A stretch of DNA of 64,000 nt, taken from Cyanidioschyzon merolae (taxonomy: Eukaryota). A model generated the notes under the pieces. It was given only the letters and a program-made list of their open reading frames with translations, did not search any database and was not told where the DNA came from. Below, piece by piece: positions 4,658-64,000 of the stretch (positions within the stretch are counted from its first letter, which is position 1; every line of letters starts with the position of its first letter). The DNA lies in NCBI GenBank assembly GCA_000091205.1, contig AP006486.2, one strand, 5' to 3'. A program made the translations under genes and the position numbers.

Positions 4658-5518
4658 TTGAGCGATATGCCTCGTGAAATACCGTTTTCAAGTGGTCAGG
4701 ATGCCGACGCTATTGTACGCGCTGTCTCGTAGACGATGCTGGTGTGCACGTCGTCATCCTGCGGGCGATACTGACCGGGATGTCGTCGTCTCTGAGGCAG
4801 TTCGCTGCTGCCCAAGTCCGCAAGCGTCGAAGCAATGAGCGTCGGCTCCGGTATCGAATGTCTGCGCAGAACAGAACGGGAAGCAACGGCGAGCTACGCT
4901 AGAATTGGTTGTTTAAAGGACACGTGGTAGCATACGGGTTCCTGTTCGAGGGCATCGCACTCGAGCAGCTGTTCAGACGCGTCTGAAGACGAATTTCGCG
5001 TCTCTAAGTCTTACCATTCTTGGTGTAGTTTGTGTACGGGACGCGCTCTTGCATGTCGTCGAATTACCCTTGGTGCAGTTTTCCCGAGGCACAAGCACAA
5101 CCCCGAGCTGGACGCTCCTTACGTTTCTCGAACACCGTCGTCGCCCGCAGTGTTCAGATAAAGCTGCCTCAACAGTTGAAGGGAACAGGGCCCCGCTTCC
5201 CCTGAATCTGCGCTGAAAACTCGTTTTCGCTCATCAATACGATAAAGCTGTTCGGGAGCGAGTGAATCCTCTTCCCGTCGATCCCGTCTCGCAGTCTTCG
5301 TCGCTTGGATCGACGCTCGACCGACGATACCACTAGCCGAACAAGCGAGACCAGCGAGTTACTGTAACACAGCAGCTGCATTGATATCTAGATCGAGTTT
5401 CGCGTCTTGCGCGTGAGTATTCTACACGGAGATATACAAACGTCAGCTGATGGACGTTATCGAAGAATGACCAATGTCGCACCAGAGTAGAAAGAGGCCA
5501 TATACATAATACGGTCGT

Positions 5519-5750
5519 AAAGTTCGTCTCTTTTACAGATATCAATCATCGTTGCCTTTGCTGGCTTTTATCGGGAGGGGTTCCTCTTCCGCTCAGTTGT
5601 CTCTGGCCCTGAATACGTCTATCTTCCGTATATACTAAAGTTCGTCTCTTTTACAGAGATCAATCATCGTTGCCTTTGCCGGCTTTTATCGGGACGGGTG
5701 CCTCTTCGTCTCAGTTGTCTCTGGCTCTGAATACGTTTATCTCTCCTGGC
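5519..5750. repeat. Tandem repeat, about 120-bp unit, 2 copies
   Basis: Unit aagttcgtctcttttacaga(t/g)atcaatcatcgttgcctttgc..ctcagttgtctctggc.ctgaatacgt is repeated at 5519 and 5638 with a few substitutions. Confidence 0.8.
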
Positions 5751-7088
5751 TCTCCAGCTCCGTTGACCGCAATTCAAGGATTTTGATGGCAGCGTTGACG
5801 TTTCGATTTTCGATTGCACGGCATTCGGATGCTGTCGACAAATTCCATGCATAAGCGGAAGTTGCGAGCAACGCATCGATTTTCATGCTCAGCTTCTTCG
5901 TAGACAGCATCGATGCGTCCACTACATCTGTGAAACTTGCCTGTGGCCGGGTGATCGCATATGTGCACCACATCTCGTCCTCTGAACGCTGCCCTGCGGC
6001 ACCTCCAGGCACGCTTCATCGCTTGGTGTACACCCACGAGGTGTACAGTGGGATCCCCTCGATGTCGTGTTCCGTTTCCACGTCAAGTGCCATCCCTGAC
6101 AATCATGGGGTCGTGTGGGCGATGCCCATGGCGAGAGCGCTCTCTCCCGCATACGCATGCCCACACTGTTTTATTCGATAGAGGAGCTGTGGAACGCGAT
6201 CTTACCGATGATGACAAAAGCACCGGACGCATAATCCAGGCTGGAAAGCTAGTGCAGACATTGCGACCAGTCCATGCTCCCATCGTGTAAAACGGTGAAA
6301 AACTCTCCCCGGAAAAATCGCCGCGTTCGCTCATACCCGAGTCCATGATCCTTTCCGATGCAGACAGTAAAAATGTCGGCAGCCTCAGCGAGCATACCCC
6401 ATTGAACATATCATACCGCTGTAGACTGCCGTTGTATCGATAGCCATAAACAGAAGATGAGTTGTCTTACGGATGAAATCGATTATTTCAACGTGACAAG
6501 TTCAGTGAACTTTCGACACGAGCAAGTGAACAAGTCGTCCATACACGATCATGAGTTTTGTTTTCTCCTTCATCTAGCAGCGCAAAATCACAACGCGCAT
6601 CATTTGCCCTGCAACAGCAAGATCGAAAAATTCGAATCATGCGTAACTTGAGCATGCTAGACCGAAGGACAGGAAAACAGGGTATACTTGTACATATGGA
6701 AAGTCTAACGACACCAGTGATATTAAGAATCCTATTCGAAACCGTTGCCCATTATCTTGGTTCTGGTAACGTACCGTATTCCAGCGGCTAAGGATCCAAG
6801 CAGCAACCCCAAATCGACTACCGAGAAACCCACAACTTTCTATGCACCCGTATGCACTAATCACTGGAATTCGAATGTTGATGCTTTCCACTCTGATACA
6901 TCTTCCGCAAAAATCGCAATGCTGGAGCAGAGCGAGCAGCGCGGATTCCCCTGGTAATCCGCGACTAGTCCAGGTCGCTGTGGATCGAGAGCATGCGTCC
7001 CGCGCCATGCCACGATTTTCGCCTGCGATCATGGGGCACATTCACGTCATTACGTCGCTCGTGACGATTCCTGTTGAACCAGTGCCCT

Positions 7089-11362: not shown

Positions 11363-13226
11363 GTCCGCAGTGCCGATGGATAAACCGCTGCAGCACGCTA
11401 ACGATCGCTGCAGATCCGATGCATCGACTGCGAAGAACGCGATGCGTTTGTGTGCGTTTGCGCCCATCGACGACAGTAAGTTGCAATAGACACGTACACA
11501 TCAGCCCCTAAACCTGTGTGACTTTAAAAAGGAACATGAAAATACTAGCTCTGTAACTGCCTTGCGGTTTTTTTTCTGCCTTGATGCACAGCCATAAGAT
11601 TCAACGCACAGCAATGGGAGCTGAAGAATTCAGAGGTTGTTCTGAGGTTCTCGGTCGCATTTTCGGGAGTGGCTCGTTTCACGCCTCGCCGCTGGCATTC
11701 ACGACACCACCGGCATGACGATCTTTCGCGACGTCGTTGAATAACGGTTTGCAAAACAGCCGATATTCTCATATAAATCATAGGTATAAGAGTTCGGTTT
11801 GCATCTTAAATTGCGAGTAGTGTGCTCAAATAATGTATGGTTCAATTTTTCGATGTTTCTGATTCAAGGCAACACACGGTGGGCGGGAATCCGCGCTCCT
11901 GGACTGATGACGAGAAATACTCGATGCCATGACTCGACGACTTGTTCACAGGCTCATGTCGAGGCCAGGCTCAACATGTCACGTCCATGAATCGAATCTG
12001 TTTCAAAGACATAGCCCTCTTGCTTTGCTGCCACCGACGATAGAGCATTCCACAGCAGCACGACGCCATACACTGGAAATGCTCCGGGAGGCCCCTGTCT
12101 CTTGTGTTGACTTGAAAAAGCGTCTTGCACTCGAATTCCCGGCATCACATTGATCAGTTGTAGTGGAGCATGCGTCACCGCTTTGCACGAAGTTAGCGGA
12201 GACGTTTCGAAATTTCTCGACGTGTTCTCCAGCCTGGATTTGCCCTCTGGTAATTGCGGCATCATGGATATGATTGTATTCCACAAATCTTCGATTGAAT
12301 GGAACAGCATGCGCTCGCATATGCAGCAAAACTTGTAGTCGACGTGGACATCGACTCAAAGAAACCCATGGTCATTGAACCTGCACCGCGCTAGGAAACG
12401 GAGCAGAGCAGCTTCGCGAGCCTTCTGTACCCGTCAGCCGTGTATACTGAGCGATTAAACAAGCGCTCGCGTGAAATACAACGGACCTTGAATGAGCATA
12501 TGTGCCGTAGATATCGAAACATCTCACCAAATCCAAGTCATACCGCTGCGAAATGCGCGCCAAGGCTGCATACGAAGCAAACGGAAACGGTACGCGACCC
12601 GTAGATCGCAACATCGGCTTGAGCATACCATGCATCCACAACTGCCGGAAACAGCAGAGCATCGAGACTTTCATATTGCCGTCACCATCGTTCGCATGCA
12701 GGCACCGGTCCTCCCGGGAAATCATAGACTGGTACAGTGGGAGCTGGAACAACCAGCGCGGAAAACGAATCATTCGCAGAGAAACCTCGCAAAGCTGGTG
12801 TCGATGACAACGGCAAGCGATACAGACTTTAGAATATACATCCCAGTTAGCGCACCGGTTCCGTTTTATGCGGATGCGAACGTCGTGTAGACGCCCGAGT
12901 CCTCTTCACACAATCTTCTTCCATTTTCACCTGACACGGGTATAGCAAACTGCGCTGCCTGCACTGGTGCAGGCAAGCGCGTGCCCTCGAACCGGTACCC
13001 CGGAAAAGGCGCTGTGTCCGCCAGCCAGACGGCAATCGGACCCCGATTGACCGCTTCTCAGTCGATGGTGCGCTTGAAAAGCTCGCACCGCGCTCGAGAC
13101 GCGACCTACGAGGATATAACACCTGAAAGGCAAAGTTTGCTTTGGCGGGGAACCGCCCCTGTCCGTCAGACTGTGCCAGCGGGCCCGGATGTCGCCGATG
13201 AACTCCACGGCGTAGTGTAGGTCAAA

Positions 13227-19298: not shown

Positions 19299-22179
19299 TG
19301 TGAACCGAGACTTTTGGTGGCGAGTCGTGAAACCCGCGTTGGGTGCCTTACGTTTCTAGCCGGCGCTTTCCCTTGCATAGCAAAGCCGAATCTGTCTCGA
19401 TGCTCGGCGGAATGCCAGAAATACCCGCTATCTCCCAGCGGATCTACGGGCAGTGGCCGGCGGAAAGTCAGAGGTAGCGCGCGTTGTTTTGGCTGCGTTC
19501 CCTGGTCTACGTCGACGTTCTGCGGGCCAGAAAAAAAGCTTGCGGTGCCGGCACATGACGCCCACATACAACGACAACCCCTCAACCAGAGTCTGGTCAA
19601 TTTCTGGGTTCATTGGCCTTAGACCCGTATCAGATTAAAAAATTGGACACTGAAATACGCGCTCGGTCCGTGACATGAGCTTTGTTCCCGAACTTTACTG
19701 ATTTGCATGGCGTCGACATTCGAACTGCACCAATAAAGCATTATGGATTCATAGGTGTAAGATTCTCGGGCGTGATTTTGGAGTGCATCCCTCGACGCGT
19801 TGCCACTGGCTCTCGCTATGTCACCGAAAGCAGGATGATTTGCGACGCCCTCGAATACGGCTTCGTTCAATAACCAATATCATTGTCCAATGCATGCGTT
19901 CAAGACTCCGCGTGTCTCGATTTCATGTGTATAGCGTGCCCAAATCGCGCGTCCTTCATGACGTGGAACTTTCTGTTTCAAGGCAACGCGTGAGCGCAGT
20001 ACTTTGCGCGACTGCATTGACGGGAGCAACCATTCGATATCGTCCGTAGAGAGCTCGTCGAGAGGTGCGCGCTGAACGTGTATTGAACTCTTCATGCCAA
20101 ATCATCAATGCCCTTTGAACGACAATTCTGTCTCTATGTCGATTGACGAAAGCAATATTCGAGTGCAGCGTGACACCTCTTCTGGGATACGCATCCAGAC
20201 TCCACCGTCGGTTCTGTCTTCATGGGAATCTTCTTGGACGCGGTCTCCAGTGATCGCGGGGATCGATACCAGTGGGGTGCGCGATACCGCTTTGCACAAA
20301 GGGAGCGTGGGCCGGTCGACACCTGTCGATTTGCGATCCAACCTGAATTTTGCTTCCGGTACCTGTTTCTTCATGGATGACATTGCGTTCCGCATATCCT
20401 CTATCGAATGGAGCAGTGTGCGAGCGCGTGTGCTTCATAAAGCGTGCTGGCTGAGGTGATCGCCCAGAAAAGGCCCGTGATTCCAGTATACGACGCCGGG
20501 CGCCGAGTCTGATGACAGCATCGAGGGCATCCCTCTGTGCTCGTCGAGGTCGTGGACCGAGCGCTGAATCAAATGGTCACGCGCCAGAGGACGGCATTTG
20601 GAGGTCAACGAGGCATCGGGGTCGACGTATGGGAGACCCCGAAACTGCTCAGGTGTCATTGGTACGACGGCTGCACCGGGGCTGTTTACAAACAAGATCA
20701 ACATGACAAGTAAAATGCACATCGCAACTTTTACCTACGTACGAAATACGTTGACAACAGCAGCAAGCGGCGAACTCGAGACATTCATACAGCTATCAAC
20801 ATCCTTCGGCTGCTGATGACGGAGGTGCAGGGACAGGAGCGACTCACGTACTCGATCCCGGAGAAGAGCGAGAGCAGAAGCGGAAGCAGTCTCAGAAAAA
20901 GCGCGCACATTCTGGTGAGGATCACAGTGGCAAGGGACCCAGACTTTGGAGAGCAAGCCCAAGTTAGCGAGCAGGGCCATTCTATTTTATTTCGATAGAG
21001 ATGTGTGGAAGGCATCTTGTCCGTACTGGCTGCCTGTCGGACGAGCGCATCTCGTGGAGGCGTGCTGCCTGTCCGTTACCCTGCTGCCGCTACCGATGGA
21101 TAGATGGGTGCTTGGATTCCCATCCAGGCATGCACGTGAGAGGGGAAATGCTTGGCGGCGGTTTCCGCTGCTTTGCAGGTCAACAGACAGTCCTCACATG
21201 TGCCGTGCATACCTCATACGCCGCCGACCAGGTAGAGGCGCTCGCACAGGACGCGCTCAAAGTACGCTTGCGTTTGGCTCCGGGTTTCACCACATGGGAT
21301 ATGGCCGGCAGCTTCGCGCACTGCGACTGCCCCGGCGCCTCATCGAACTCGCTGGGATCCAAAAAGAATCCCTTGGCACCCAGGGAATGGATGATGGGAA
21401 GCGATTCCGCGTCAACACGCTCATCCATGGCTGAAGCACTCGTCGCTTCGACCAGGACTGGGCGCCTCCTTTAGAGTTCTCCTTCACGCAGATCATGATC
21501 TGCCAAGCAACTTTCAAAAGCGTCCAGTGATACGCCTACAGCTGGGCGAAGGAAACCTTTCAGGTCCTGTGTATGCCTCTCGCTTCTAGTTACATTTCCC
21601 GAGTGACGATTCCCAGCGTCGGAATCGCCATGCGCCCCCGGTATCGCCACATGTACGTGCATAGCATCTGGCAACGCAAGCCATGCGTCAGTGCGGCGCC
21701 TAGCCCGAACCCGCGAGTCCTGTGTGTGTGTGGGTGTGTTTGTGCGCGCGCACCGGAACGCCTACCAGCCGCCCCGCTGGATGTCCGTGCGTCATGCCGC
21801 TAACTATATGCATCTACATAAGGTTGCATGCTTCGACGCTGCACGATAAAACGGAGTGCTTGGAATGCATTTTTAGAAACAGAGTGCCTGCGCAGCGATC
21901 GGATTCGAGGCGCTCGGCGTGCTCTGGGTGGAAAGCAAATCATCGACATGTATCGAGCGTTTACGTTGTGTTGATGACCGGGACTTTGGTGCCCCCAGCG
22001 CTGGTTGGAGCGATCCCCCCGCTCTTCTTTAGCGCCTGTTCCAGGACTGTTGCCAAAAATGTCGACGGCGCACCGCATTTCTACACCGTCCGTTAAGATG
22101 GTGGTGGTTGCCGCAGTGCAGCGCTCGGGTACTGCTTTTTTGCGCTACGCAGGCGTGCTAGCCTGGTATCCCAGAAGTA

Positions 22180-22778
22180 AAACAAAAACGTTCAACGACC
22201 ATGGAGGGTAAATACGTATACCCACGCGCATGCGCCTCTGCGCCGTTCGTGACCGGTCCCCTGGCATCTATTTCGGTTTCTAACAGTACACTTCGAGCAG
22301 CAGAGGTTGCTAGATGAAGTTAGATCGCCTCAGCTCCCCTGGTCTCTCGTATTCAGCATCCCACATCGTCTGCTGCTGGGTGACGGCGCTGGTGTCTCAG
22401 TTGACGAGCTCCCTGCGTGCATTGAGGCTGGTGGAGCTCCCCAGCACAAGGAGGCCTCTAATTCGAGCCCTCTGTGGCACTGCAGTAAGGTCATCGTCCC
22501 GTAGCGCAAACGCCCTCTCTCGCCTATTTCCCCCTTCTTCTTCGTCGACACTTGCGCTTTTCCCTCGATGGGTGGAGAAAACAGAATTTTTCGTTTTCTT
22601 TCCCGGCAGCCGGTGATGACAGCCTTCGAGGATCCCCGACGCCCATCTTTGCTCCTTTCCCTTGGATTCTTACTTTTCTTCAAATGAGCGCACGTCGAAC
22701 GCATCCGCTCTAAACTGCGAAAACGAATTTGACGACACGCATCTGGGAGTCGGAGCACGATTGATGAGAAAGACTATA
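22180..22778 (-). mobile_element. MITE-like, internally deleted derivative of the Fanzor/TnpB-like element family (copy M1)
   Basis: Collinear, roughly 70-80% similar over its whole length to the element at 63392-63975. Shares the 5' terminal block (..tcttcaaatga.cgcac...gaacgc.tc...gaaagactat) with the Fanzor copies at 36.2 kb and 37.15 kb. Retains a degenerate stretch homologous to the region encoding the RuvC-III motif. Homology with M2 ends at both boundaries. Confidence 0.55.
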
Positions 22779-22807: not shown

Positions 22808-23131
22808 CTAGTCCATGAGGTCCTCCGGCCGAATGCGATCAAGATATCGGGGCTGTAGACCAGACCCGCCGCAGTTGAGACAAACCACAGTGCTTCGCCC
22901 CTTGCAGTACGAACATTCCTTTTCATACTGCCCGAAACCGAGCTTGCCGCGGCCCTGGCAGTACCCGCAGGCAACCTGACCGTCCCCACGACATTCCACG
23001 CAGGGTTCACGCCGACCCCGGGCCTTCCCGCGCTCACCTTGCACCTCTGTGAACGCGAGCAAACCTATACCCGCAATGGTACCCAATCCGCCGACTATCA
23101 GGGCAGTCAGCACCTCATCCGATAGCTCCAT
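22808..23131 (-). CDS. DnaJ-like zinc-finger (4x CxxCxGxG) single-TM protein, similar to plastid BSD2/PSA2/LQY1-type proteins. The 5' limit is approximate.
   Basis: MELSDEVLTALIVGGLGTIAGIGLLAF (TM helix) is followed by CVECRGDG, CGYCQGRG, CSYCKGRS and CLNCGGSG. The upstream part of the track ORF (to 23446) runs antisense through the 110-bp tandem array and is probably not coding. Confidence 0.5.
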   Translation of the reverse strand: MELSDEVLTALIVGGLGTIAGIGLLAFTEVQGERGKARGRREPCVECRGDGQVACGYCQGRGKLGFGQYEKECSYCKGRSTVVCLNCGGSGLQPRYLDRIRPEDLMD

Positions 23132-23394
23132 AGAAAGCGACGGCCGGCCAGTCTTCGAACTCGGCGAACGAAACGCGACGTGTCGCTGCCGTCGTTCAAG
23201 TCGCTCCTGGCGCTCTATCGCCCAGTACTTCCAACCGTGAAAGCAGCAGCCCCGTGGCTTCCTTAACACATTTACCGAACCCACGAACATGAACGAAGCC
23301 CTAGTTGAGAAGCGCTCTCGCTTCCAGAGGCGTCTGCTATGCGTCTGCGAACGTTCACAATAGGGCTCGCGGAGAGCGACGCTTATTCGGGCAC

Positions 23395-23880
23395 CGAGCG
23401 ATGTCGCTGGCATCAGCGCTGCGAAGCGATGCGCATGCCTCGCCATTCAAGTTCTGTCCATATGTATACATTCCAGTATACTATGTACATTCTGCAAGTG
23501 TCGCCAGCGCTGGGCATCGCACCAGCGCTGCGAAGCGATGCGCATGCCTCGCCATTCAAGTTCTGTCCATATGTATACATTCCAGCATACGTATGTACAT
23601 TCTGCAAGTGTCGCTAGCGCTGGGCATCGCACCAGCGCTGCGAAGCGATGCGCATGCCTCGCCATTCAAGTTCTGTCCATATGTATACATTCCAGTATAC
23701 TATGTACATTCTGCAAGTGTCGCCAGCGCTGGGCATCGCACCAGCGCTGCGAAGCGATGCGCATGCCTCGCCATTCAAGTTCTGTCCATATGTATACATT
23801 CCAGTATACCTATGTACATTCTGCAAGTGTCGCTAGCGCTGGACATCGCACCAGCGCTGCGAAGCGATGCGCACATGAAG
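23395..23880. repeat. Minisatellite, about 110-bp unit x about 4.4, immediately upstream of the fumarase gene
   Basis: Unit gcatcgcaccagcgctgcgaagcgatgcgcatgcctcgccattcaagttctgtccatatgtatacattccag.ata..tatgtacattctgcaagtgtcgc.agcgctgg recurs at about 23405, 23513, 23623 and 23732, with a partial unit at 23843. Confidence 0.85.
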
Positions 23881-29510: not shown

Positions 29511-29849
29511 GCCCGCACGCTTGGTTTTCTTGACTCGTGCTACCGGAGTCTGTGGGCTTTGTTTTCGACACCAGCGCGCGTCCTAGTCGCACCTCGAGCC
29601 GTGCGCTCGCTCACTCAACGTTGATTGGGCGCTTGAAGCTACGAGCAGTGCGCTCAACGGAAAAGCGTCGCGTAACCACGAAACCCGCTGGGCGCTCCCT
29701 CTTCCATAGCTCTTTCGAGCGCTTCTGCTACGGTCTTCAACTAGCACAACACGAACCAGGGTTGTCGTGCGCGACACAACCGCAGCAGCAAACGGTTTGA
29801 AGCACCTCTGCCGAATAGCGTATGGCGCCACCTGGTGCGGGTAAACCTC

Positions 29850-30492
29850 GAATCGCTCGTCGCCTGATGCGAGATGCTGCATTTGGGGCGCTGCTGTGAT
29901 CGTGCATCCTGCAGTGCACCTATAGCGGATATGGTACAGTGCACGATGGTGTATCCGTATTGGAGGATTCGAATTGCTCGTCGCCTGATGCGAGATGCTG
30001 CATTTAGGGCGCTGCTGTGATCGTGCATCCTGCAGTGCACCTATAACGGATATGGTGCAGTGCACGATGGTGTATCCGTATTGGAGGATTCGAATTGCTC
30101 GTCGCCTGATGCGAGATGCTGCATTTAGGGCGCTGCTGTGATCGTGCATCCTGCAGTGCACCTATAACGGATATGGTGCAGTGCACGATGGTGTATCCGT
30201 ATTGGAGGATTCGAATCGCTCGTCGCCTGATGCGAGATGCTGCATTTAGGGCGCTGCTGTGATCGTGCATCCTGCAGTGCACCTATAACGGATATGGTGC
30301 AGTGCACGATGGTGTATCCGTATTGGAGGATTCGAATTGCTCGTCGCCTGATGCGAGATGCTGCATTTGGGGCGCTGCTGTGATCGTGCATCCTGCAGTG
30401 CATCTATAGCGGATATGGTGCAGTGCACGATGGTGTATCCGTATTGGAGGATTCGAATCGTTCGTCGCCTGATGCGAGATGCTGCATTTAGG
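29850..30492. repeat. Satellite-like tandem array, 121-bp unit x about 5.3
   Basis: Units start at 29850, 29971, 30092, 30213, 30334 and 30455, about 95% identical. Unit: gaat.gctcgtcgcctgatgcgagatgctgcattt.gggcgctgctgtgatcgtgcatcctgcagtgcacctata.cggatatggt.cagtgcacgatggtgtatccgtattggaggattc. Confidence 0.9.
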
Positions 30493-31439
30493 ACACAGGG
30501 AAACCTGGAGAGAGCGCCCGATGATCGCTTGCCTGGATGACGATAACAGGCATCAGAGCGTACTCGTGTTCAGGCCCTGGGATGCTGAAGGCGCCTCGGT
30601 GCAGTTGACGAGGCCGCCAACTCGCTCAAGACTAATGATTATTGCTGAAGCAGTATGCGACCTGCGGGCTCAAATCATTCACAAGGTCAACTGCATACTA
30701 CTCACGGATAGCAGCACACAACACCACAGTGTTTGACGAGCACGCCAGGCAATGCTCCACAGAAGCGCTCGAGAACGCATGATCTGCAGCGAACAGATCC
30801 TTCGAGTTGACATCGAGGACATGAAACACGAAGTTCTGCGCGCCTCAATGAAAAGCAAGCTTGTCGCCCGAGCGAAAACCTCTGGACGCGTGTCATCGAT
30901 TCCACCGGTGCACTGTATCGCACACACGGCCACGAGTCGCGCGCTGCCTGGCGTACATACAGGCAGCGTAATGACCGGTGATCGCAGAGCTCCTTGCGGG
31001 CAACGCGGCTAACCTCCGCATCATCTAGCGTCGCCGCGCGTATCACCACGGGCACCCGGGATCGTCGCGTAGAGCGCTACTGGAGCACCTGCTCATGCTA
31101 AAGCCGGGTGCGTTCTCGAGCGCAATCCAAGCTACAGAGCCGCATCTGCGCGTTTGTCCTGCATATGCGACAACTGGCACCGCACGCCTCGGGTACAGCG
31201 TCGTCCAAAATGCTTCTGCCCACGCCACCAATCCCGTGGTGCGTGCTGTAAACTACAAGTGAGGCCTAGTGCAGGCAGCGCGCCATGTACAGCTCTGCGT
31301 TTCTTGTTGATCGCGGAAACGTTGATTTCGACCAGAGATCCTCAAGTGGGCCATGAATACCTGCATCACAGAGATTGACTATCGGTATACGATTTGCCTC
31401 CGTGTTTCGAGAGCAACGGTAACTTCTTACCTTACAGGG

Positions 31440-31985
31440 TGTTCTAGATATCCGATCCAGGATCACCATCAACACGTCCACTGAAGGGATCGTCATTCAT
31501 CTCACAGCATACTCTAGATACCGTACGCAGGATCACCATCAACACGTCCACTGATGGGATCGTCATTCATCTCACAGCATACTCTAGATATCCGATCCAG
31601 GATCACCATCAACACGTCCACTGTAGGGATTGTCATTCATCTCACAGCATACTCTAGATACCGTACGCAGGATCACCATCAACACGTCCACTGTAGGGAT
31701 TGTCATTCATCTCACAGCATACTCTAGATACCGTACGCAGGATCACCATCAACACGTCCACTGATGGGATCGTCATTCATCTCACAGCATACTCTAGATA
31801 TCCGATCCAGGATCACCATCAACACGTCCACTGTAGGGATTGTCATTCATCTCACAGCATGCTCTAGATACCGTACGCAGGATCACCATCAACACGTCCA
31901 CTGTAGGGATCGTCATTCATCTCACAGCATGCTCTAGATATCGTACGCAGAATCACCATCAACACGTCCACTGATGGGATCGTAT
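31440..31985. repeat. Tandem array, 70-bp unit x about 7.8, upstream of Rab11, with two interspersed unit variants
   Basis: tctagata recurs every 70 bp (31443, 31513, 31583 ... 31933). Variants are tccgatccag versus ccgtacgcag, and ctgatgggatcgtc versus ctgtagggattgtc. Confidence 0.9.
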
Positions 31986-33689: not shown

Positions 33690-33846
33690 TCAAGCGCACG
33701 GAGGTCTTTTCGCGGTTGCAGCTCCCAAGCAAGCTCTGAAAATATGGTTCCGTTCAAAAAAAGATTCCCTGATACTTTACAAGTTTGTATATGTGTTAGA
33801 AAGCTGCAAGCGAAGATACCGGTCTCGAGCAACACGATGTTCGAAA

Positions 33847-34000
33847 GTCGAACGTCGCCACCGGTGTACAGTAGTGGCGACCGGCGCCCTAGACAAGAAG
33901 TCGCTAACGGATGTGCAGACATCTCCCAGCCGCTTTGGACCGGCCACCTTCTACTGGTTCCAACTTTTTCTCGTATAGTTCCACTTTGAGAGGTTGTCCG
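33847..34000 (-). ncRNA. Candidate omega-RNA (reRNA) scaffold region at the 3' end of Fanzor copy 1. This is a prediction and its extent is unknown.
   Basis: In TnpB/Fanzor systems the guide RNA scaffold overlaps the 3' end of the ORF and ends at the element's right end. Here a perfect 8-bp stem (gtcgccac/gtggcgac, 33853-33880) lies about 10 bp inside the point where copy 1 and copy 2 stop being homologous. Confidence 0.25.
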
Positions 34001-36124
34001 ATAAAGTTCTCTCTTGTCGGCTCTGGAGGTCTTTTCTCTAGCACCGTACATTTCCTTATATTGATGGCGGCATTAAAGTCTCGGTTCACAAACTCCATCC
34101 GTTTCTTCCATCATTGCTTGTTCTAACCAGCGCAGGTAGTCCACGAACTTTCGTCCTCCTTTCCATTTGCTCCTCCTTCAGCGGTCCGCACTTTGCTATA
34201 TGTTCAGGGGTCCGTTGGCACTTTTCTTTCTCGACCATCTGAAGTGTACAACCCAGTTCATGGTGTGTATAGGACGTTCGAAACTCATCTATCGGTATCG
34301 TAACGAAGCGGCTTGTGCACTCCTTGTACGTTCTTGTTGACGGAGCTGTTGTACTCCCTTTCTTCGACGCCCAGCGTCCTGCCCCATACGCTACCAGGAG
34401 CCTCTGACTTCCATCCTCCTTCAAGGCGTTCAACCGGTTGAAAAAATTCGCAACCGCCCGCTGTTTTCCACAATACAAATTCATTCGCAAACGAGCCCAC
34501 CGGGGCTTGGTATACTCCGCCCACAGTGCATCCCCATGGGCAACACGAACATCCATGAATTTCCGAAAAGGTTCAAAGTCCGCTCCTCGGCTCGTCGCCT
34601 CGCTCAAAGCTTCCAGGTGATCCTTCATTTCTGCATTCCACGGACCAATTTTCTTTCTTGCATTCACTATACCGGATTCTCGATAGTATCTCGCTCTGGC
34701 GAGCCTCAAAAGACGCATGTCTGTCTGGCGTAAGTTGCAATCAGTACCATCATCCGCACGCTTGGGAGCAGCGATGGTTATGATATTTGTGTTTCTAGGA
34801 TCCCCGCCAACGACAAAGTCGTTATCCTGCACCTCCTGCATCGTAGGACCCGCCTCCTTCTCATCTTCATCCTTCGTCACGGGTGCAGCCGAGGACGGAA
34901 CTGAACAATCCGCGTTCAAGCGCCGATTGTGTGCACACAGGGCTACCCCATCGGTTTTGATCATCCCAGTAAATACCTTTTGCTTGCTCACTTTGAGACA
35001 TTTGAAATCGAAGATGTTCTTCCAGTACGTCTTCCGGTTTTCACCGGAGAACTCCTCCCTGCTAACATCGAACTCCGGACAGATCTCCTTCATGATGCCG
35101 TAAAGGATTCTGGAGTCGATAGTCACAAAATGTGACTTGATCTTGCCCAACGGAACCACGTCGAAGCGCTTCCCTACTAGGAAAGCCTTCCGTCTCTCCC
35201 ACTCTTCATTTTTCCCGTTCAGCTTCATCTCTGCCTTGCGTTCGAGTTCTCGGTCCAGAAACACGAAATAGCACAGAATGAGGCGATCGTATCTTTCCTG
35301 ATCTTTGCTCAACTCTGATACCTTGTCTGTTGGATTCGGTAGCCCCAGTACCGCACGATGCTCTTGTATAACCGCACGGATCGCAGAAGCTTCATTCGTG
35401 GTCTCGTTTGACGCCTTCTTGTCGACAAATTCTACCTCATCTTCACGCTTGCGATCTTTCATGATGCCATTGATAATCGTCCATTTTCCATTGCGAGAGA
35501 TGCCCGGGTAGAGTGCAAACACGGTGCGTATCATGAAACGTTCGAGGTTCCCTGTCTCATGGTTCTTCAGATTCGTGAGGTACTTCATCGCCCCATAGCT
35601 GTAGATATCTCGGTCACCCTTGTTTCGAGTATCTTTGAAGCTGTAAAAGGGATGTCTTTCGTGTAGGGCATGTACTTGCTCATTTTTCCCTCCGTGTTTG
35701 CCCTGAACCAAGCATCAGGTGACGAACGAAGGTCTTGTCGAAGATCTCGTCTGGAATCTCGACTGTTTTGATGGCCGCCACGTCGCGATACATCTCCCTC
35801 GCCAGATGCATCAGTCCTGACAACGCCTTGACGATACTCTTAGAGTACGAGTCGAAAAGGTTGTGGATGGCCTCTTGAAACATTTGCTTGTAGAGATCCT
35901 TGATGTAATTAAGAAGACAGGCTTTCACCACCATCTCGTTGTACAGTCGTCTTTCTTGCCGCCTTCGACGTGGGGCCTTCCCTCTTTCGGTTCTTCTTCT
36001 CCTCCTTTTCTTCTGGACACGGCACTGTTTTTTGTTTTTGTTTTCCAGCAGCCGGCGACCCTGGGCCTCCAGGATCGTCGACTCAGTTTTTCATAACTTT
36101 CCATTTTTTTGGTTTTTTTGAAAA
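33904..36124 (-). pseudogene. Fanzor/TnpB-like nuclease pseudogene: RuvC-I, TS-x-x-C zinc-finger region and RuvC-III are present, and at least 3 frameshifts are needed to join the ORF pieces.
   Basis: ORF pieces 35925-36305 (K/R/E-rich NLS-like N-terminus), 35680-35934, 34086-35711 (541 aa) and 33904-34098. RuvC-I-like VVGGDPRNTNIITIA; IDEFRTSYTHHELGC plus CQRTPEHIAKC (TS-Cys zinc-finger position); and MEFVNRDFNAAINIRK, the canonical TnpB/Fanzor RuvC-III motif. Comparison with copy 2 locates 1-nt indels in an A5 run near 35700 and at ggaagaaacgg near 34100. Confidence 0.7.
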
Positions 36125-37245
36125 AAGCACTCTGTGAACGCTTCTCCAATATACTACGAAAAAAACACTTGACTAGACTTGTTTGAGTTTTGAAACATAA
36201 ATGAACTGAAAAACTATACTTTGCTACGTCCTGAACGGAAATCCGACTTTTCCAGCTGAATAACACGCTACTGATCAAAATCGCGTTTCCCTTCAACAAC
36301 GGCACCGTGCGCGTCGTGTCTCATGCCTGCCAGATCTCCCAGGTGCGCTCACTATGCGTCGATTCGTTTTCCGATGTCAACACCTTGCCATAGAACATAG
36401 AATCCAGATTGCGGGATGGATACTGAAATAAATGAGAGCGCTCATTATTCTTCGCTCCACCTTCAAGTTCCATTACTTATACTTCCTCTGGGATCTACTG
36501 GTCGTTTCGTATATTCTATCGTGCACCGAGTGCCTGCCTCGCTGCACCTGCAATAGCGCCCGTATCGTTGGAGCAGCTGCATCACCGAGACAGAAGAGCT
36601 TTGCCATACCACTGAGGGCGTCGGATCGAGGAATACTTCTCCTCACACGGACTCGGAGTGCATAATCACTCTGGTAACCAGCATGCTGTGCTTAAAGGCC
36701 TACTGCCTGTGGCAGCGCGGAGCGATGTACTAGGAGCCACTGCGACCAGCGCAACGCCCAGAAGCAGCGTACCCGCTCCTAGTCCCAGGATAAACTGCGT
36801 TGCGGACGGACTGCTCAGATCGGACCAAAGCACCTGCCACTGGGAGGAGCATGAAGCACGAGGCTAGCTGTCTCGTACGACTCATGGGACCTTCCACCAA
36901 GAAGGTAAACCTTCGGCAATATGGAAAGCTTTCCCCTTTTAACGTTTCTCGTAGAGGGGTAACGAAATTGTTATCTCATTACTGCGTGGTCGCTCGTTGC
37001 TGTTCTTTTTCCTAGAGCGCAGTCTGTTAGCACACCTGGGAGATCTGGCGGGCGTGAGACACGACTTGCAACTCGCAGTTGAAGCGAAACACGATCCTGA
37101 TCATTTGTAGACTTGTTACTGTGACTGGCAAGTTGTATTTGCATGAAAGTCGTAGCAAAGTATAGTCTTTCAGTTCTATCATGTCTCAACCACCAAGTAA
37201 CTGTATTCAAGTGATATTTCGCGGTTTATAGCGGAAGCGTTAATC

Positions 37246-39469
37246 GTGAACTCGTTTGCAAAAATAAATAAAGTTATGGAAATGAAAGTAGAGGATCCTG
37301 GAGGGCCTGTGCCGCCGCGTGCCGAGAAAAATACGGAAAACAGTGCCGTCCATGAGGAACAGGTGAAGACGGTGAAGCAAAAGGGGGCGAACCGACACCA
37401 GAACCTGCACGAAAGACGACAGTACGACGAATTGGTAGTGAAAGCCTGTCTTCTTGAACGTAACGCGGATCCCGTGAAGCAAAAGTTCTGAGATGCCATC
37501 AGAAACCCTACTGCATCTCACTCCTTGAGTGTTTGTAACGCATCTTCAGCACCAATTCATCTGACGAAGGAGATGTACCATGACGTGACGGACATCAAAA
37601 AAGTCGAGGCTCCGGAAGAATTGTCCAACGTGACCTTCCTTCGCCACGAGATGCTTGACACATGGGAAACAACGAGGAGAAATGAGCGAGTGCATGCACT
37701 CTACGAAAATTATGCAGAGTGCCGCTCCAACGGCACTCGATATAGGGGTGACTCAAATGTTCACAATTACGTGGCGATGAAGTACCTCTCGAATCTGAAG
37801 AACAAAACGACCATGAACCTGAAACGCTTCATGATACGCTCCATCTTTGCGCTCTACCCTGGGCTGTCTCGAAAAAAAAGGATATGGGCCATCATGATTG
37901 GCATCACGAACGATCGTCGGGATGCACAGGAGATCGAATTCGTGAACAAGAGGACATCACACAGGAGAAGGAAGACGCTTCTTTGATCCGTGCGGCGATT
38001 CATAAGCACCGCGTGGTTTTGGGGCTTGTCAACCCAACAGAAAAGGTTTCAGATATGAAAAAAGATGTTTTTCCCGCATCCTGCGCTAGTTCGTGTTCCT
38101 GAAGCGTGAACTCGGACGCAAGGCCGAAAAGGAGCTGAATGGGGGAAAAATGGAGAGTTGTTGGAACGGAAAGCTTTCGTACTGGGGGAACGCTTCAATG
38201 TCGTTTCGTTTTGCAACATCTAGTCAATGTTTGTTACATTCGACTTCAGAGTCCTTCATGGCATCATGAGGGAGATCAGTCCAGGGTTCGATGTGAGGAA
38301 GATACGGTTCATCGGCGAGAAACCGGGAGACATACCAGAAGAACATCTTCGATTTGAGACATCTCAAAACGAGCAAGAAAAAGTATTAACGGAGATGATC
38401 GAAACCGATGGAGTAGCCGTATTCGTACACTATAGTCGCTTGAAGGCAGATCGTCCTGTTCCGTCTTCGCTATCGCACTTGGCGAAACGTGAAGAAAACA
38501 AGGATGCGGATCCTGCGACACAGAAAGTGCAGGATAACGACTTTGTCGTTGGCGCGAACCCCGGAAACACGAATATCGTAACCATCGCTGTGCCCAGGCG
38601 TGCGGAAGATGGTACTGACGGCAACTTACGCCAGAAAGACATGTGTCTTTTGAGGCTCGCCAGAGCGAGATACTATCGAGAATCCGGTATAGTGAATGCA
38701 AGAAAGAAAATTGGTACGTGGAATGCAGAAATGAAGGATCACCTGGAAGCTTTGAGCGAGGCGACGAGCCGAGGAGCGGACTTTGAACCTTTTCGGAAAT
38801 TCATGGATGTTCGTGTTGCCCATGGGGATGCACTGTGGGCGGAGTATACCAAGCCCCGGTAGGCTCGTTTGCGAATGAATTTGTATTGTGGAAAACAGCG
38901 GGCGGTTGCGAATTTTTTCAATCGGTTGAACGCCTTGAAGGAGAATGAAAGTCAAAGGCTGGTAGTGGCATACTGAGCAGGGCGATGGAAGACCCGAAAA
39001 GGGTGTACGCCAGCTCCAATGACAAGAGCGTACAAGGAGTGCACGACGTTTCGTTACAATGCCTGTCGATGAGTTTCGAACATCGTATGCACACCATGAA
39101 CTGGGATGTACACTTCAGAAGGTCGAGATGGAAAAGTGCTAGCGGAGCCCTGAACATATAGCAAAGTGCGGACCGCTGACGGAGGAGCAAATAGAAAGGA
39201 GAGCGAAAGTTCGTGGACTACCTGCGCTGGTTAGAACAAGCAATGATGGCAAGAAACGGATGGAGTTTGTGAACCGAGACTTTAATGCCGCCATCAATAT
39301 AAGGAAATATACCGTGCTGGAGACGAGACCTCCAGAGCCGACAAGAGAGAACTTTATTGGACAACCTCTCAAAGTGGTACTATACGAGAAGAAGTTGGAA
39401 GCAGTAGTGGGTGGCCGGTCCAAAAAGACTGCGAGGCGCCTGCACATCAGTTGGCGTCTTCTTGTCTAG
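37246..39469 (+). pseudogene. Fanzor/TnpB-like nuclease pseudogene (copy 2), broken by several frameshifts and in-frame stops. The RuvC-I Asp is replaced (GANPGN).
   Basis: ORF pieces 37246-37491 (MEMKVEDPGGP.., NLS-like), 37525-37986, 37884-38102, 38227-38862 (..DNDFVVGANPGNTNIVTIA..) and 39260-39469 (MEFVNRDFNAAINIRKYTVLETRPPEPT..). There is a TAG where copy 1 has TGG at about 38862. Confidence 0.7.
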
Positions 39470-39522
39470 GGCGCCGGTCCCCGTTACTGTACACCGGTGG
39501 CGACGTTCGACTTTAGAACAGC
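39370..39522 (+). ncRNA. Candidate omega-RNA scaffold region at the 3' end of Fanzor copy 2 (prediction)
   Basis: Position homologous to the copy-1 3' terminus. The stem seen in copy 1 carries 3 mismatches here (gtccccgt versus gtggcgac), consistent with decay. Confidence 0.2.
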
Positions 39523-39563
39523 GTTGATGGCGCCGCTCTGAAAATTCGCGTACCTCCGCGAGG

Positions 39564-42332: not shown

Positions 42333-43931
42333 AAATAGAGTCTCCCAAGGTATCCTAGCAAACACGCAAAAAGTACACGATCGTGCGCGCTCTTCAGTAA
42401 CAAAACGCTCCAGCCAATAGGGGAGGCAGCGCAGCGCCCTGCGCCATCCGCCGTCAGCCGTCGACGCGATGCGCGCAGCATTGCTGCACTGCCCGGAAAG
42501 CGCGGCTTCGTATAGCTGGTGCTCTTCCGGAGACTGGGACGCAGAGCGGCACCTACATCGCAGTCGTATAACAGAAGCAACATCAGCAGAAGCACACGAG
42601 GGGAGTACGTTTGATTCGGTATAGCTGGAGGCAGCGTTCAACGACGGTTGCGTACGAGCGACCTGCGTTACGCTAGGGCGCTTTTTCTCGCGTGAACGAC
42701 CGGAAGCGGTTGGTACCAGGAGTGCCAGCACCGAAGCCTCTTGTGGTGTGACTGCTACCCAGAAAGCGTCCCGCTGGTGGCGGGCTCGGTTCAGCGAGCG
42801 CGTGAGTTCGCATCTTCGTGCGTACGACGACAGGCACGTAGAGACGCCAGCGTAACGGGTGTAGTGCGCGCCTCCGCCGGGTAACGCTCTTTACCATAAG
42901 GTCGCTGCTTCCAGAAAAGTGTGGTAACATTCGACTGGCGGTTTCACGAACGTGTCATAGTGACAACTGGAACAGCGTACCACCGGTAAGCATGGGTGGT
43001 ACACCGCGCTACCCGTACCCACGCGACGTCTGGTCGCCAGCTGGCGGCTGGTGGCCGCATCCTCGCGCTTGGCGTAGGAACACTGCAGTGGCAGCGTTCG
43101 GCCTCGTTCTTGTTCTGACGCCGATCTTCATCTACTCTGAGCGGATCTCCGAACGGCCTGAGGACGCCGCACGCCAGATCCCTTGGCGGCCGTGGGTCAA
43201 GGTGCGGGCAAACTCCATGACGTCAGAAACTGAACCCGGGCAGCACTGAGGGCCTTGCTGCAGCATGCGGCGGTGCGTCGAGAGCATCAGCGCTTGTGGA
43301 TGGAGCTTGTGCTTCCAAGTCGATCAAGGAGCGGTCACGCAAGCGACGATATAAACCAGAGATTCCGACGCGGTGAGATTCTTCTCTGAACGGAACGGAC
43401 AGGAAAGAATGGCATTTAAGGGTTCTATGCGGAGCGACGCGGACATCTGACCTGTGTTGCATGCGCGGCGCTCCGTGTATCTGTTTCCATATGAGTGCTG
43501 TTATGCGCTGTGGCGAGCAGTGCCAGCGGCAGCGTCTGGTACCAGTATCGCCGCTAACAACGAGCACACTACACTGCACACGCAGTGCAGCCGACAAGCT
43601 CCAGGACGGCAGGTACCAGCGACACACTTGGAGCAACGGGCAGGTTGCGCTTGTCCGATCGTATCCGTTGAGATGGATGCGCATGCTTGTTCCCGCTATC
43701 GAAAATGCAACGGTTGTGTGTCACTTTCGTGAACCGAGTTCGTCTGCGCCAGTCTTTATCGCGTATCTTGTTGCGCCCGAGAAAGATACCGTAAAAACAC
43801 GAGAAACACACCAAGGGTCCCGCATCACCATAAACGTTGAAGCTCGCGAAAACGTGCTGCCCTGGTATCCCAAACCGCGCAAACGTCAGCCAGCGCCGTC
43901 CGCTCCCGCGACCGTAGAATGCATCGCTGGT

Positions 43932-44139
43932 GAACGTACAACTCACCTCAGGCCCTTTTATCACTCAGAGAACAACATGACGAAGTATGACTGTGCTAGT
44001 GTCCCGAAAGATGCACCGCTGGCGACCATAAACCGCACCTCAGGCCCTTTTATCACTCAGAGAACAACATGACGAAGTATGACTGCGGTGGTGTCCCACC
44101 AGATGCACCGCTGGCGAACGTACAACTCACCTCAGATCC
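43932..44139. repeat. Tandem duplication, 92-bp unit x about 2.3
   Basis: gaacgtacaactcacctcaggcccttttatcactcagagaacaacatgacgaagtatgactg..gatgcaccgctggc is repeated at 43932 and 44024, with a partial unit at 44116. Confidence 0.85.
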
Positions 44140-44239
44140 TTCCACCGAACTATAGACAACAACACCCTAGACGTCAAAGCTGCCGTCAGCGACTGCAGCC
44201 GCAGGATGAGCGCGTGAACATCCCAGCTCCTCCAACGTC

Positions 44240-49914: not shown

Positions 49915-50329
49915 CGTCGAATAACGAGCAAGGAATGCGCTGCGGCTGGAGCGAAGCGCCGGTGGGCGTCCACCGGCGCAGCTCAGGGGGAACGATCGTT
50001 GAGGCAGGCGCTTTCGTGGCGTACGCTTTATGGGCCTTTACCTCGAGTGTATTTTATCCTCAGGTGTGGGTAACCAATTGCTTATCCATGGTGCATAGCG
50101 GATGCGTTAGAAGTGCGTTCATTGGAAGGAAGAAAGGCTGTCATCGCCGGATGCGATAAAAAATACCAAAAAAATGTCTCTTGTCGCCGACTGCCGAGCG
50201 ACGGCGATAAAGAAAAACAAGAGGGCATCTAGGCGAGGAAAGGCGTTCGCCCGGCCTGGCGATGGCCAGACTCTAGGGGTACAGGGGGGTGAGGGTGAGG
50301 GGGGTGTTCGACTCTGAGCAATCCCTGAA

Positions 50330-50625
50330 TTGGTGCGTTCAACCAGCGGCACTGCATATAAGGAGTTCATCAACGAAGACTTTTCACACCACGATCGATA
50401 CCAAGCGACGGGTGTGGTGCTGGAGACGAGAAACCCGAGGAGCTGACGCGATCCAGCCCAGTCGGACAGCCGCTCACGGTCGACTTGTACAACGACAAGT
50501 TGGAATCAGTACCAAGGGGCCGGTCAAAAAAAGTCGCGAAGCACCTGCACGTCGGTCTCTCTACATACACGCTACGGTCGGAATGCACTTTGGTGCTGCA
50601 TCGGTGGCGGCATTCGTACCGCATA
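50330..50625 (+). mobile_element. Solo 3'-terminal fragment of a Fanzor-like element (degenerate RuvC-III coding remnant plus 3' end)
   Basis: ttcatcaacgaagacttttcacaccacgatcgataccaag..gtgctggagacgagaaacccgaggagctgac..cacctgcacgtc..catcggtggcggcattcg is collinear with the copy-2 sequence ttgtgaaccgagactttaatgccgccatcaatataagg..gtgctggagacgagacctccagagccgac..gcctgcacatc..caccggtggcgacgttcg. The motif is degraded to FINEDFSHHDRYQ. Confidence 0.45.
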
Positions 50626-62002: not shown

Positions 62003-63391
62003 GCGTCAGACTCAAGTGGAACATAGGAATGCTTGCTTCGTTCGTCGTTCTCGACATCGACGAGCTTGGTTCAGATGTGCAGCATAGACATTCGAAATGC
62101 ACGGATAAGGGCTCACGGAAGCATGCGTCGTGTTGAGATTCGCCGACATCGTTTCTGAGTGGCTTCTTCGACGGTTTACCGCTGGAATTCGTTGCGTCTC
62201 CGAAACGAGGATGGCTCGCGACACCCTCGATGCAGGGCTCTTAAAGCGACCAATACGATCATCGGATTCGTTCGTACGCGGATCTATTCTTCCCCTTTTC
62301 TCAAGTGTGGCAAGCTGAAATCACGCCTTCCTCATGTTTTCGATCTTTTTGTGTTTCAAGGAAACAGGTGAACAAGGCAACTTGAACCAATGTATTGACT
62401 AGGAGCGTACTCGAACTCGTCCTTCGACGACTTGCCCACAAACTTATGCCGCATGCTCTCTGAAATCGTCAAGCGAAATCATTGACCCTGTACTTATGCA
62501 ATATCCTAGTCTCTTGGTGGCTATCGGCGATACAACATTCTACTCCAGCATGATATTTGTCACAGGGTACGCTCCCAGAGGTTCTAGTCTCTAGTGTTTG
62601 CAGGGAAGATGTTCTTGGACTCGAAGTCGAGTTCTCGCAGCAATCGCCTTCATTCGGGAGAGCGTCAGCGCTTCGCATGAACGCATCCTGGCCGGATCTA
62701 GGTTTCTTGACGTGATCTCAGGCCTGGATTTTTCCGTTCAACAGTTGTTACATCGCGGACAACATCGCGTTCCACAAATCCGGTTCTATTCGGAAACAGC
62801 TGCGAACAGAGCACGGTTCATCGTACAGACGCCATCTTATTCTCTGTGATTCAACCCGAGTTAGATCGTCACCAGGGTCTCGAATGGAAGCAAATCATTC
62901 GTTGGAGAATGCAACAGCGTGCGTTAGTTTGAGCAGCAGACCGAGGACTTGCCGAGGGATCGCTCCGAAGAAGCCCATGATCATCGTGGACAGTACCGGG
63001 CGCGAAATCACAAGCGAGCATCCATGTCATGCTCTGCATTCGTTAGGGGCATGTACAGAGCGAGGAAGCATGCTTCTTTTTCAAGCGCCACAAGGCGGTG
63101 CCTGGAACAGCAGGAGCTCCTTCGGTAGATCGTTCTGAACACCAAACCACACTCCCGTGTTACTGCAACGAAGGGCGCACCGAGGCTGTGTTCAAAGAAC
63201 ACGAAGATGGCAAGCAAAGCGTAGATTGCAACGCCCGCTCGTGTGTGAAGCGCCCCGACAACAGTCGATAGCAGCAAAATCGGGAACTGAACGCTGCCAT
63301 CAACATCCTTCAACTACTGACAACAGACGCAGAAGGACAGAGGAGACCAGTGCATTGAAAGCGAGAGATGTGTGTTGAATGAAACGAAGAA

Positions 63392-63975
63392 GGCGCTGCG
63401 ATCACAGAGGGCATACATAAACACCCACTCACAGACGCCTCCGAGCCCTTTTCGACGGGCCGCCTGCTATCGGCTACAGTTTTTATCGCAGCGCACTTCG
63501 TGTTGAGCGGCTGCCCGGTAAGCTTAGATGGCGGCAGCTCTGCGAGTCTCTTGTCGTCAGCACCGCACACATCATCTGGTATTGGTGGCAGCATTGAAAT
63601 CTGGGTTCTCGAGCTCCATGCGTTTATTGCCGCTGAATGAACTCGCCAGCGCAAGGATTCCTCTAATTTGTACCCTCTGTGGAAATACAGTCTCACCATC
63701 GTCCCGTCGGGCAAACACCTCTTCTCGCATATACCCCATCGTCTTCGTCACTTGCGTTTCTTCGCTCGATTGTCGGCGAGAAGAAGATTTTTTCGTTTTG
63801 TTTTCGGGCACCCGGCGATGATGGCCCTCCAGGATCCGCGACTTTCCGGTCCATACCTTCCCATTAGATTTTTATTTCTTCAAATGAACGCACTTTGAAC
63901 GCTTCTCCAATAAACCGCGAAAGCGCATTTGATGACACGGAAGTGAGCGTGCAATGCAATTAAGGTGAAAGACTA
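63392..63975 (-). mobile_element. MITE-like, internally deleted derivative of the Fanzor/TnpB-like family (copy M2); it may extend past the window end
   Basis: Collinear with M1 (22180-22778). Its 5' block is ..tcttcaaatgaacgcactttgaacgcttctccaataaaccgcg..gaaagactat. It retains a short ORF ending MELENPDFNAATNTR, a decayed version of MEFVNRDFNAAINIRK, and its antisense frame matches the copy-2 antisense frame (LVLVAALKSGFSSSMRLLP versus LILMAALKSRFTNSIRFLP). Confidence 0.55.
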
Positions 63976-64000
63976 TGCCAGCGCGAGCATATGCTAGACC

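Follow-up and report, generated by a model that had tools for sequence, protein, structure and literature searches.

M1, a probable fossil of a short, gene-less Fanzor1 subfamily in Cyanidioschyzon merolae

Short copies and their flanks

M1, an element of ~605 bp located on the minus strand at 22173..22777 of the 64,000-nucleotide stretch of Cyanidioschyzon merolae DNA analysed here (the window), is probably (at about 80%) a fossil. It would belong to a short subfamily without genes that was derived from CMe-1 Fanzor1 by internal deletion and spread via its termini. Its limits were obtained from self-BLAST, nhmmer and a multi-copy alignment. The short subfamily is new; the parent family, CMe-1A, was already described in 2013. 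M1 itself is an ordinary fossil non-autonomous derivative, old and neutrally decaying. Homology to the parent, a shared deletion junction, shared termini, independent flanks, multiple copies and decay are all directly supported.

Two blocks make up M1. The 5' block (22530..22777, minus strand) comprises the terminus (T)ATAGTCTTTC together with the Fanzor 5' UTR and what is left of the first ~45 codons, and the 3' block (22173..22472, minus strand) comprises the remnant of the last ~85 Fanzor codons and a 3' terminus designated type B. Direct reading against the alignment places a decayed RuvC-III remnant at 22370..22417 (minus strand), RRELVN*DTSAVTQQQ, which is in the register of KRMEFVNRDFNAAINIR and has a stop codon inside.

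The second short copy, M2, is located at 63377..63976 on the minus strand, with the RuvC-III remnant KRMELENPDFNAATNTR at ~63575-63625. A reading made from the sequence alone had described M1 and an element at 63392-63975 as collinear for roughly 580 bp, and the window self-BLAST bears this out: M1 22220-22777 and M2 63423-63976 are 70.0% identical over 566 bp (E=3e-57), and on the plus strand both are closed by ...gaaagactat (22768-22777 in M1, 63967-63976 in M2). The two loci are thus real, with coordinates that need extension, the true 3' terminus lying slightly further out (M1 ~22173-22777, M2 ~63377-63976). The third copy, M3 (50030..50600, plus strand), was detected at 50043-50568 with E=2.4e-53 by nhmmer using a profile built without it. 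It carries the RuvC-III remnant KEFINEDFSHH at ~50357-50405 and spans the same deletion junction as M1 and M2, with an additional deletion in the 5' block and the G-rich insert ggggggtgagggtgaggggggg. M3 is located between two genes of divergent orientation. The fourth copy, M4, was read, together with the 5' flank of M2, from L089, a contig that belongs to a strain of 99.15% identity and continues beyond the end of the window. It lies at 5962-6408 of that contig (minus strand), ~1.5 kb past the window end, in the orientation opposite to M2, and its 3' end is truncated (nhmmer E=1.8e-60).

The copy search covered ~72 kb of the C. merolae genome and ~1.1 Mb of related metagenome contigs, and any C. 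merolae copy number is an extrapolation from these. At least three short copies are present within the window and a fourth ~1.5 kb beyond it. In contigs of related Cyanidiales, short copies occur in L021, L014 (also L034), L064, L073 and L077; L010 (also L011 and L034) contains an inverted pair of short-element 3' parts, and partial copies occur too. Pairwise identity among the short copies is 54-69%, and their remnant coding frames are interrupted by stop codons.

The differing flanks that had been noted for M1 and M2 were also found here. Their 3' flanks differ, and 400 bp of 5' flank from each of M1, M2 and M3, compared with the aid of the L089 contig, show chance-level similarity (best E=0.06). 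In multiple alignments the homology among the short copies ends sharply at both termini, and the dispersed copies M1-M4 and those in L021, L014, L064, L073 and L077 have the same boundaries and unrelated flanks. These sequence comparisons show a multi-copy family of independent insertions. It could be argued instead that M1 and M2 owe their origin not to transposition but to the duplication, segmental or ectopic, of a single decayed Fanzor remnant, because with two copies alone shared boundaries are trivial, one duplication setting both ends. However, at least four copies exist in this region of the genome and further ones occur in relatives, and their termini agree throughout. The continuous flank homology that the sequence-only reading had named as a sign of duplication is not seen, since the flanks are unrelated on both sides and homology stops at the termini, and the other finding that would have spoken against that reading, an absence of additional copies, is contradicted by M3 in the window, M4 ~1.5 kb beyond and the copies in relatives. 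A second independent deletion type ends at the same termini, which also bound some full-length elements. Duplication is accordingly barely credible as the origin of the pair.

Another dispersed repeat family, ~65-70% identical and unrelated to Fanzor, is present in the window at 19713-20595, 56311-57201, 6015-6296, 11979-12324 and 63137-63339. One of its copies lies 38 bp from the 3' end of M2, and others sit beside Fanzor copies in L029, L017, L018 and L043.

Parent Fanzor1 elements and the internal deletion

Two Fanzor copies lie head to head in the window: F1, a short-form CMe-1-type Fanzor1 pseudogene (33834..36352, minus strand), and F2, a long-form CMe-1A-type Fanzor1 copy (36360..39530, plus strand). 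In the self-comparison F1 33834-36352 and F2 37026-39524, 2.5 kb each, are 78.6% identical, and M2 has ~135 bp in common with each of them. The N-terminus of F1 is broken, and its 541-amino-acid ORF contains DEFRTS; VNRDFNAAINIRK is encoded by both F1 and F2 in another reading frame, and a 1-bp deletion lies just upstream of it in F1, before RuvC-III. F2 is heavily frameshifted, and both copies are pseudogenes. Neither the window ORF nor its full-length relatives matched any family in Pfam-A, and a single-sequence PDB search returned nothing. At E<=1e-3 the F1 ORF matches 156 relatives, of which almost all come from JGI metagenomes, and an alignment of 17 full-length relatives displays the RuvC triad DPGxxNI / DEFRTS / NRDxNAAxNI (D / E / D). 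The profile of these 17 sequences matched only Fanzor1 entries in the PDB, namely those from Parasitella (9cf0, 3.7e-10), Spizellomyces (8gkh, 1.6e-7) and Guillardia (9cer, 1.3e-3), and F1 and F2 are therefore Fanzor1 elements.

The Fanzor1 family of C. merolae was described as CMe-1A by Bao & Jurka 2013 (Mobile DNA 4:12; PMC3627910). According to that study its ~150 copies show ~80% identity each to a consensus of ~3 kb, with no terminal inverted repeats (TIRs) and with target site duplications (TSDs) that were not determinable; some intact CMe-1A ORFs exist in the genome, and the first 635 bp of the element match a separate ~70-copy element, TE-N2_CMe. No ~600-bp derivative of CMe-1A is described in the text of PMC3627910, and the names CMe-1A and TE-N2_CMe were found in no other paper of the library searched.

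For comparison, 80 further loci were taken from the metagenome scan. Independent full-length elements in L003 and L004 have the limits of F1, which puts the start of the short form 135 bp upstream of ATAGTCTTTC. The limits of homology between F1 and F2 (36352 and 37026) were considered as the full-length 5' end and rejected, the 80 loci showing that F2 is ~670 bp longer. The ~670-bp "spacer" between F1 and F2 is a TE-N2_CMe-like segment, which by comparison with the 80 loci forms the first ~650 bp of F2 (36360-37015, plus strand). This segment occurs solo in many loci (e.g. L004 13614-14111, L054 11973-12520 and L058 14185-14731), and the solo copies end just before the start of short-form Fanzor elements (~37016-37026), which suggests that CMe-1A is composite: the published consensus appears to consist of TE-N2_CMe, ~148 bp and an element beginning at ATAGTCTTTC.

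Three observations on these full-length copies are added here. The F1/F2 inverted pair is kept at 98-99% identity in the metagenome strains L001, L002, L006 and L007. It directly adjoins a VHL-domain gene, and in Cyanidiococcus the Arf-VHL neighbourhood is seen only up to the VHL gene. Within the ORF, a ~72-75-bp unit is repeated two to four times in tandem in L003, L008, L012, L064, L066, L075 and others (equivalents of F2 38477-38557); this repeat is an acidic linker, with repeated KHEE..ATQEVED segments in P0002.

The architecture first proposed for M1, in which a Fanzor 5' block is followed by decayed RuvC-III sequence and by a 3' end of its own, is what BLAST, profile searches and multiple alignments agree on. 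By BLAST the 5' block of M1 (~250 bp) is 63% identical to F2 37161-37387 (E=1e-14), and the 3' block (~260 bp) is 56% identical to F2 39199-39460 (E=1e-5), RuvC-III codons included. A profile of four short copies detects the 3' ends of F1 and F2 with E=9e-26 and 4.5e-28 and their 5' blocks with E=2.4e-20 and 1e-17, and in multiple alignments the M copies are collinear with the 5' and 3' parts of the Fanzor copies. RuvC-III remnants in register with KRMEFVNRDFNAAINIR are legible in M1, M2 and M3; in M2, KRMELENPDFNAATNTR corresponds to KRMEFVNRDFNAAINIRK of F2.

One continuous deletion junction is common to M1, M2, M3, L021 and L014. When mapped on the full-length L036 element (3251 bp) as reference, L021 and L014 are without ~1095-2965, and over that junction M1, M2 and M3 align continuously with them; L064, L073 and L077 are without ~1014-2857 and have termini identical to those of the first group. 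The mapping indicates that the internal deletion arose independently at least twice. This two-block collinearity and shared junction uphold the view of M1 and M2 as internal-deletion, gene-less Fanzor derivatives. Two other origins were ruled out: independent in-situ deletions by the shared junction, and retroposition of a Fanzor transcript by the lack of a poly(A) or A-rich 3' tail and by the missing interior not being an intron. The short copies termed beta carry, after their first ~80 bp, ~900 bp that are absent from the alpha copies of the window. This ~900-bp segment (L021 1830-2680 and L036 8620-9520; also L014, L064, L073 and L077) is found in full-length L036/L038 as well.

The following course of events is proposed. 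An ancestral full-length element would have lost ~1.8 kb of its interior, that is, nearly the whole nuclease gene. Left over would be the first ~240 bp, with the 5' terminus, the 5' UTR and the first codons, and the last ~330 bp, with the RuvC-III codons, the stop-codon region and the 3' terminus with its small terminal hairpin. The shortened unit would then have multiplied to new sites, presumably mobilised in trans via its two termini by the same machinery that moves full-length elements, with insertion involving neither TIRs nor TSDs, and the copies would have decayed neutrally afterwards.

Termini and terminal hairpins

The 5' terminus (T)ATAGTCTTTCA-CTCAA is shared by M1-M3, five beta short copies from related genomes and the full-length elements L029 and L036, and the upstream flank is different in every copy that has it. 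All short copies end in the type-B 3' terminus ...GGTATTCATTTACCCTCYATGGTY-GYGAAACRTTTTYCGTTTC-ACTGA (ATGGTY-GYGAAACRTTTTYCGTTTC-ACTGA), as do full-length L036/L038 and L039/L040/L049, and most full-length copies, F1 and F2 among them, end in a different terminus, type A. The 3' end singled out as distinct by the sequence-only reading is thus a real alternative Fanzor 3' terminus, which full-length L036, L039, L040 and L049 possess too. The related claim that M1 keeps the termini of its parent is correct for elements elsewhere, its 5' end being a true end on full-length L029 and L036, but not for those of the window: the shared 5' block begins 135 bp inside F1 and ~800 bp inside F2, and because it is internal there, the M copies do not keep the termini of F1 and F2. 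Only the beta variant (L036/L038) offers full-length copies with both M-type termini; for the alpha form, the matching 5' end is on L029 and the matching 3' end on L039. By these alignments both M termini are genuine element ends, as on some full-length copies elsewhere. In this way the short copies define real 5' and 3' termini for part of CMe-1 Fanzor1, whose ends and classification were left open in 2013.

No inverted repeat pairs both termini of M1, M2 or M3, and nine copies inspected for direct repeats in their flanks had none. At the target site, the base preceding TATAGTC is T in 7 of 11 junctions (M1-M3, L029, two in L036, L021, L014, L064, L073 and L077), often as CT, with the boundary uncertain by 1-2 nt. 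A T before TATAG may be a target or TAM-like motif, and it is not decisive because of that same uncertainty. The search for target-site features that had been suggested therefore yields this T as a candidate, and no TSD at nine copies.

The type-A 3' terminus (39470-39530 and 33834-33890; also L004, L083, L084, L047 and others) forms a strong hairpin in most copies, with a mean z of -2.0 over 30 copies and a lowest value of -5.6. Its stems vary while the pairing is kept (CGTTCGA/TCGAACG, CGTTTTTC/GAAAAGCG and an unrelated 15-bp stem in L047), and these compensatory changes indicate a selected structural end signal at the type-A terminus; the hairpin may serve in end recognition or as an RNA element. 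At the type-B end the hairpin is merely a short one, GAAACG/CGTTTC, and M1, M2 and M3 have it in eroded form. The terminal hairpins of these three fold at chance level (z of -0.4, +0.8 and -0.3, respectively), and full-length type-B copies have z of about -2. The lack of TIRs and TSDs, the 3' hairpin and the T-rich 5' context narrow the search for the mobilising enzyme.

Guide-RNA potential, related systems and the neighbourhood of M1

The sequence-only reading had proposed that such elements could be omega-RNA-only loci that an intact nuclease elsewhere in the genome uses in trans. Fanzor and TnpB omega-RNAs are transcribed near the 3' end of the element, in many cases overlapping the ORF end, and the 3' flank serves as the guide (PMC10432273). 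The M copies retain this region, and therefore the idea is reasonable for a young element; when young, the short unit would have carried an omega-RNA-coding 3' end.

The present copies tell differently. The consensus fold of 12 type-B ends, computed with RNAalifold from a MAFFT alignment, amounts to -0.76 kcal/mol and 6 pairs. RNAalifold finds almost no consensus structure for 39 full-length type-A ends either, so that the missing consensus fold is weak evidence alone; its failure on the full-length set is probably due to misaligned columns around variable loops. Per-sequence folding against dinucleotide shuffles was used in its place. With this procedure the last 220 nt of the short copies give a mean z of -0.33 (M1 +0.79, M2 -1.85, M3 -0.10), which is chance level, and 20 full-length type-A ends give a mean z of -2.06, reaching -5.4. 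Among M1-M4, identity is lower in the 3' block (48-66%) than in the 5' block (61-73%), the opposite of what is expected under a constraint on a 3' RNA. At gathering thresholds Rfam has no match anywhere in the window. The case against an omega-RNA is carried by the shuffle controls and the conservation pattern.

It is thus very unlikely that the M elements are functional omega-RNA-only loci, that is, a eukaryotic analogue of the gene-less IS200/IS605 derivatives known as PATEs, with transcripts from the Fanzor promoter guiding an intact nuclease in trans. Several points do speak for it: M keeps the 3' ~300 bp, where Fanzor/TnpB omega-RNAs are encoded (PMC10432273); bacterial PATEs retain omega-RNAs, and their use in trans is documented (PMC10055086); two independent deletions both keep the 5' region and 280 bp or more at the 3' end; the 3' ends of full-length type-A copies have significant structure (mean z=-2.1); and some CMe-1A ORFs in the same genome are intact (PMC3627910). 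However, the short copies share no RNAalifold consensus fold, the last 220 nt and the terminal hairpins of M1-M3 fold at chance level, the 3' block is the less conserved one in copies that are 54-69% identical overall, both Fanzor copies of the window are pseudogenes, and the window has no Rfam match. As regards the past, by analogy with PATEs, it is conceivable, though quite unlikely, that young short elements were their counterparts, with a Fanzor promoter and an omega-RNA end, and that their transcripts were loaded in trans onto intact CMe-1 nucleases. If so, RNA-guided cleavage of empty sites would have protected or propagated the short copies, and younger members in other Cyanidiales genomes might still do so. 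The end features described above also mark out where Fanzor guide RNAs can be sought, in an alga that is tractable and has a tiny genome.

Among known systems, the closest is CMe-1A itself, which belongs to the same genome and the same sequence family: the M blocks are homologous to its 5' and 3' parts, M like CMe-1A is without TIRs or detectable TSDs, and F2 fits a ~3 kb element whose first ~635 bp are TE-N2_CMe (PMC3627910). M differs in lacking the ~1.8 kb interior, hence a nuclease gene, in starting at an internal point of the consensus (ATAGTCTTTC) and in having the alternative type-B 3' terminus. PATEs (Meers et al. 2023) are likewise short, non-autonomous members of the TnpB family that keep their ends and have neither TIRs nor TSDs, and the guide-RNA-coding region is retained in both PATEs and M. 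In contrast, PATEs possess paired subterminal hairpins recognised by the Y1 transposase TnpA and often conserved omega-RNAs, whereas M has a weak 3' hairpin only and no conserved RNA structure.

The Fanzor1 families CRe-1/2/3 (non-autonomous Fanzor1-carrying Helitron2 elements of Chlamydomonas) and MCi-2 (Mucor) resemble M in that their copies are internally deleted or vary on the 5' side, the 3' region is constant and has a subterminal hairpin, and the 5' context of insertion is T-rich (PMC3627910), but M has no RepHel partner, no Helitron termini (5' TC, 3' CTRR) and no asymmetric TIRs. This resemblance is no more than a lead to the mobilisation mechanism.

With regard to the MITE-like character attributed to M1, what defines a MITE is the possession of TIRs and of TSDs that have a fixed length. 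The M copies resemble MITEs of the Tourist and Stowaway kinds in being small (<800 bp), non-coding, multi-copy deletion derivatives, often beside genes, but TIRs and TSDs were tested in the M copies and are absent. The label is therefore only loosely apt, holding for a small multi-copy deletion derivative and failing for the repeats and duplications.

Next to M1 lies a zinc-finger ORF (22808-23446, minus strand), which by a weak Pfam match is a BSD2-like cysteine-rich protein. The ~30 bp first reported between M1 and the stop codon of this gene were measured as 30 bp, and the two have the same orientation. A fumarase core adjoins M1 as well; it is 100% identical to the protein of C. merolae 10D and identifies the source of the window as that strain, whereas exact look-ups with the Arf and zinc-finger proteins returned no record. 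M1 is present in the 99% strain (L088), and neither Cyanidiococcus yangmingshanensis (L086) nor an 88% relative (L087) has it downstream of the orthologous zinc-finger gene; in both, homology stops exactly at the stop codon of that gene. Because intergenic DNA is unalignable between those species, L086 and L087 provide no precise empty site for M1, so that the precise end bases and the lack of TSDs are read solely from the multi-copy alignment.

The shared orientation, the distance of 30 bp after the stop codon and the retention of M1 in the 99% strain could be taken to mean that the adjacent BSD2-like gene has co-opted M1 as part of its 3' UTR or terminator. However, retention in a 99% identical strain is uninformative, no M1 is found at the orthologous position in Cyanidiococcus or another relative, the contexts of M2 and M3 are unrelated, and conserved sequence or structure is absent, which makes co-option highly improbable.

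Five tandem arrays of 85-98% identity are also present in the window, at 23410-23873, 29848-30492, 31431-31983, 5518-5742 and 43919-44141, with periods of ~110, 121, 70, 118 and 92 bp, respectively. The array at 23410-23873 lies inside a long ORF upstream of the fumarase core.
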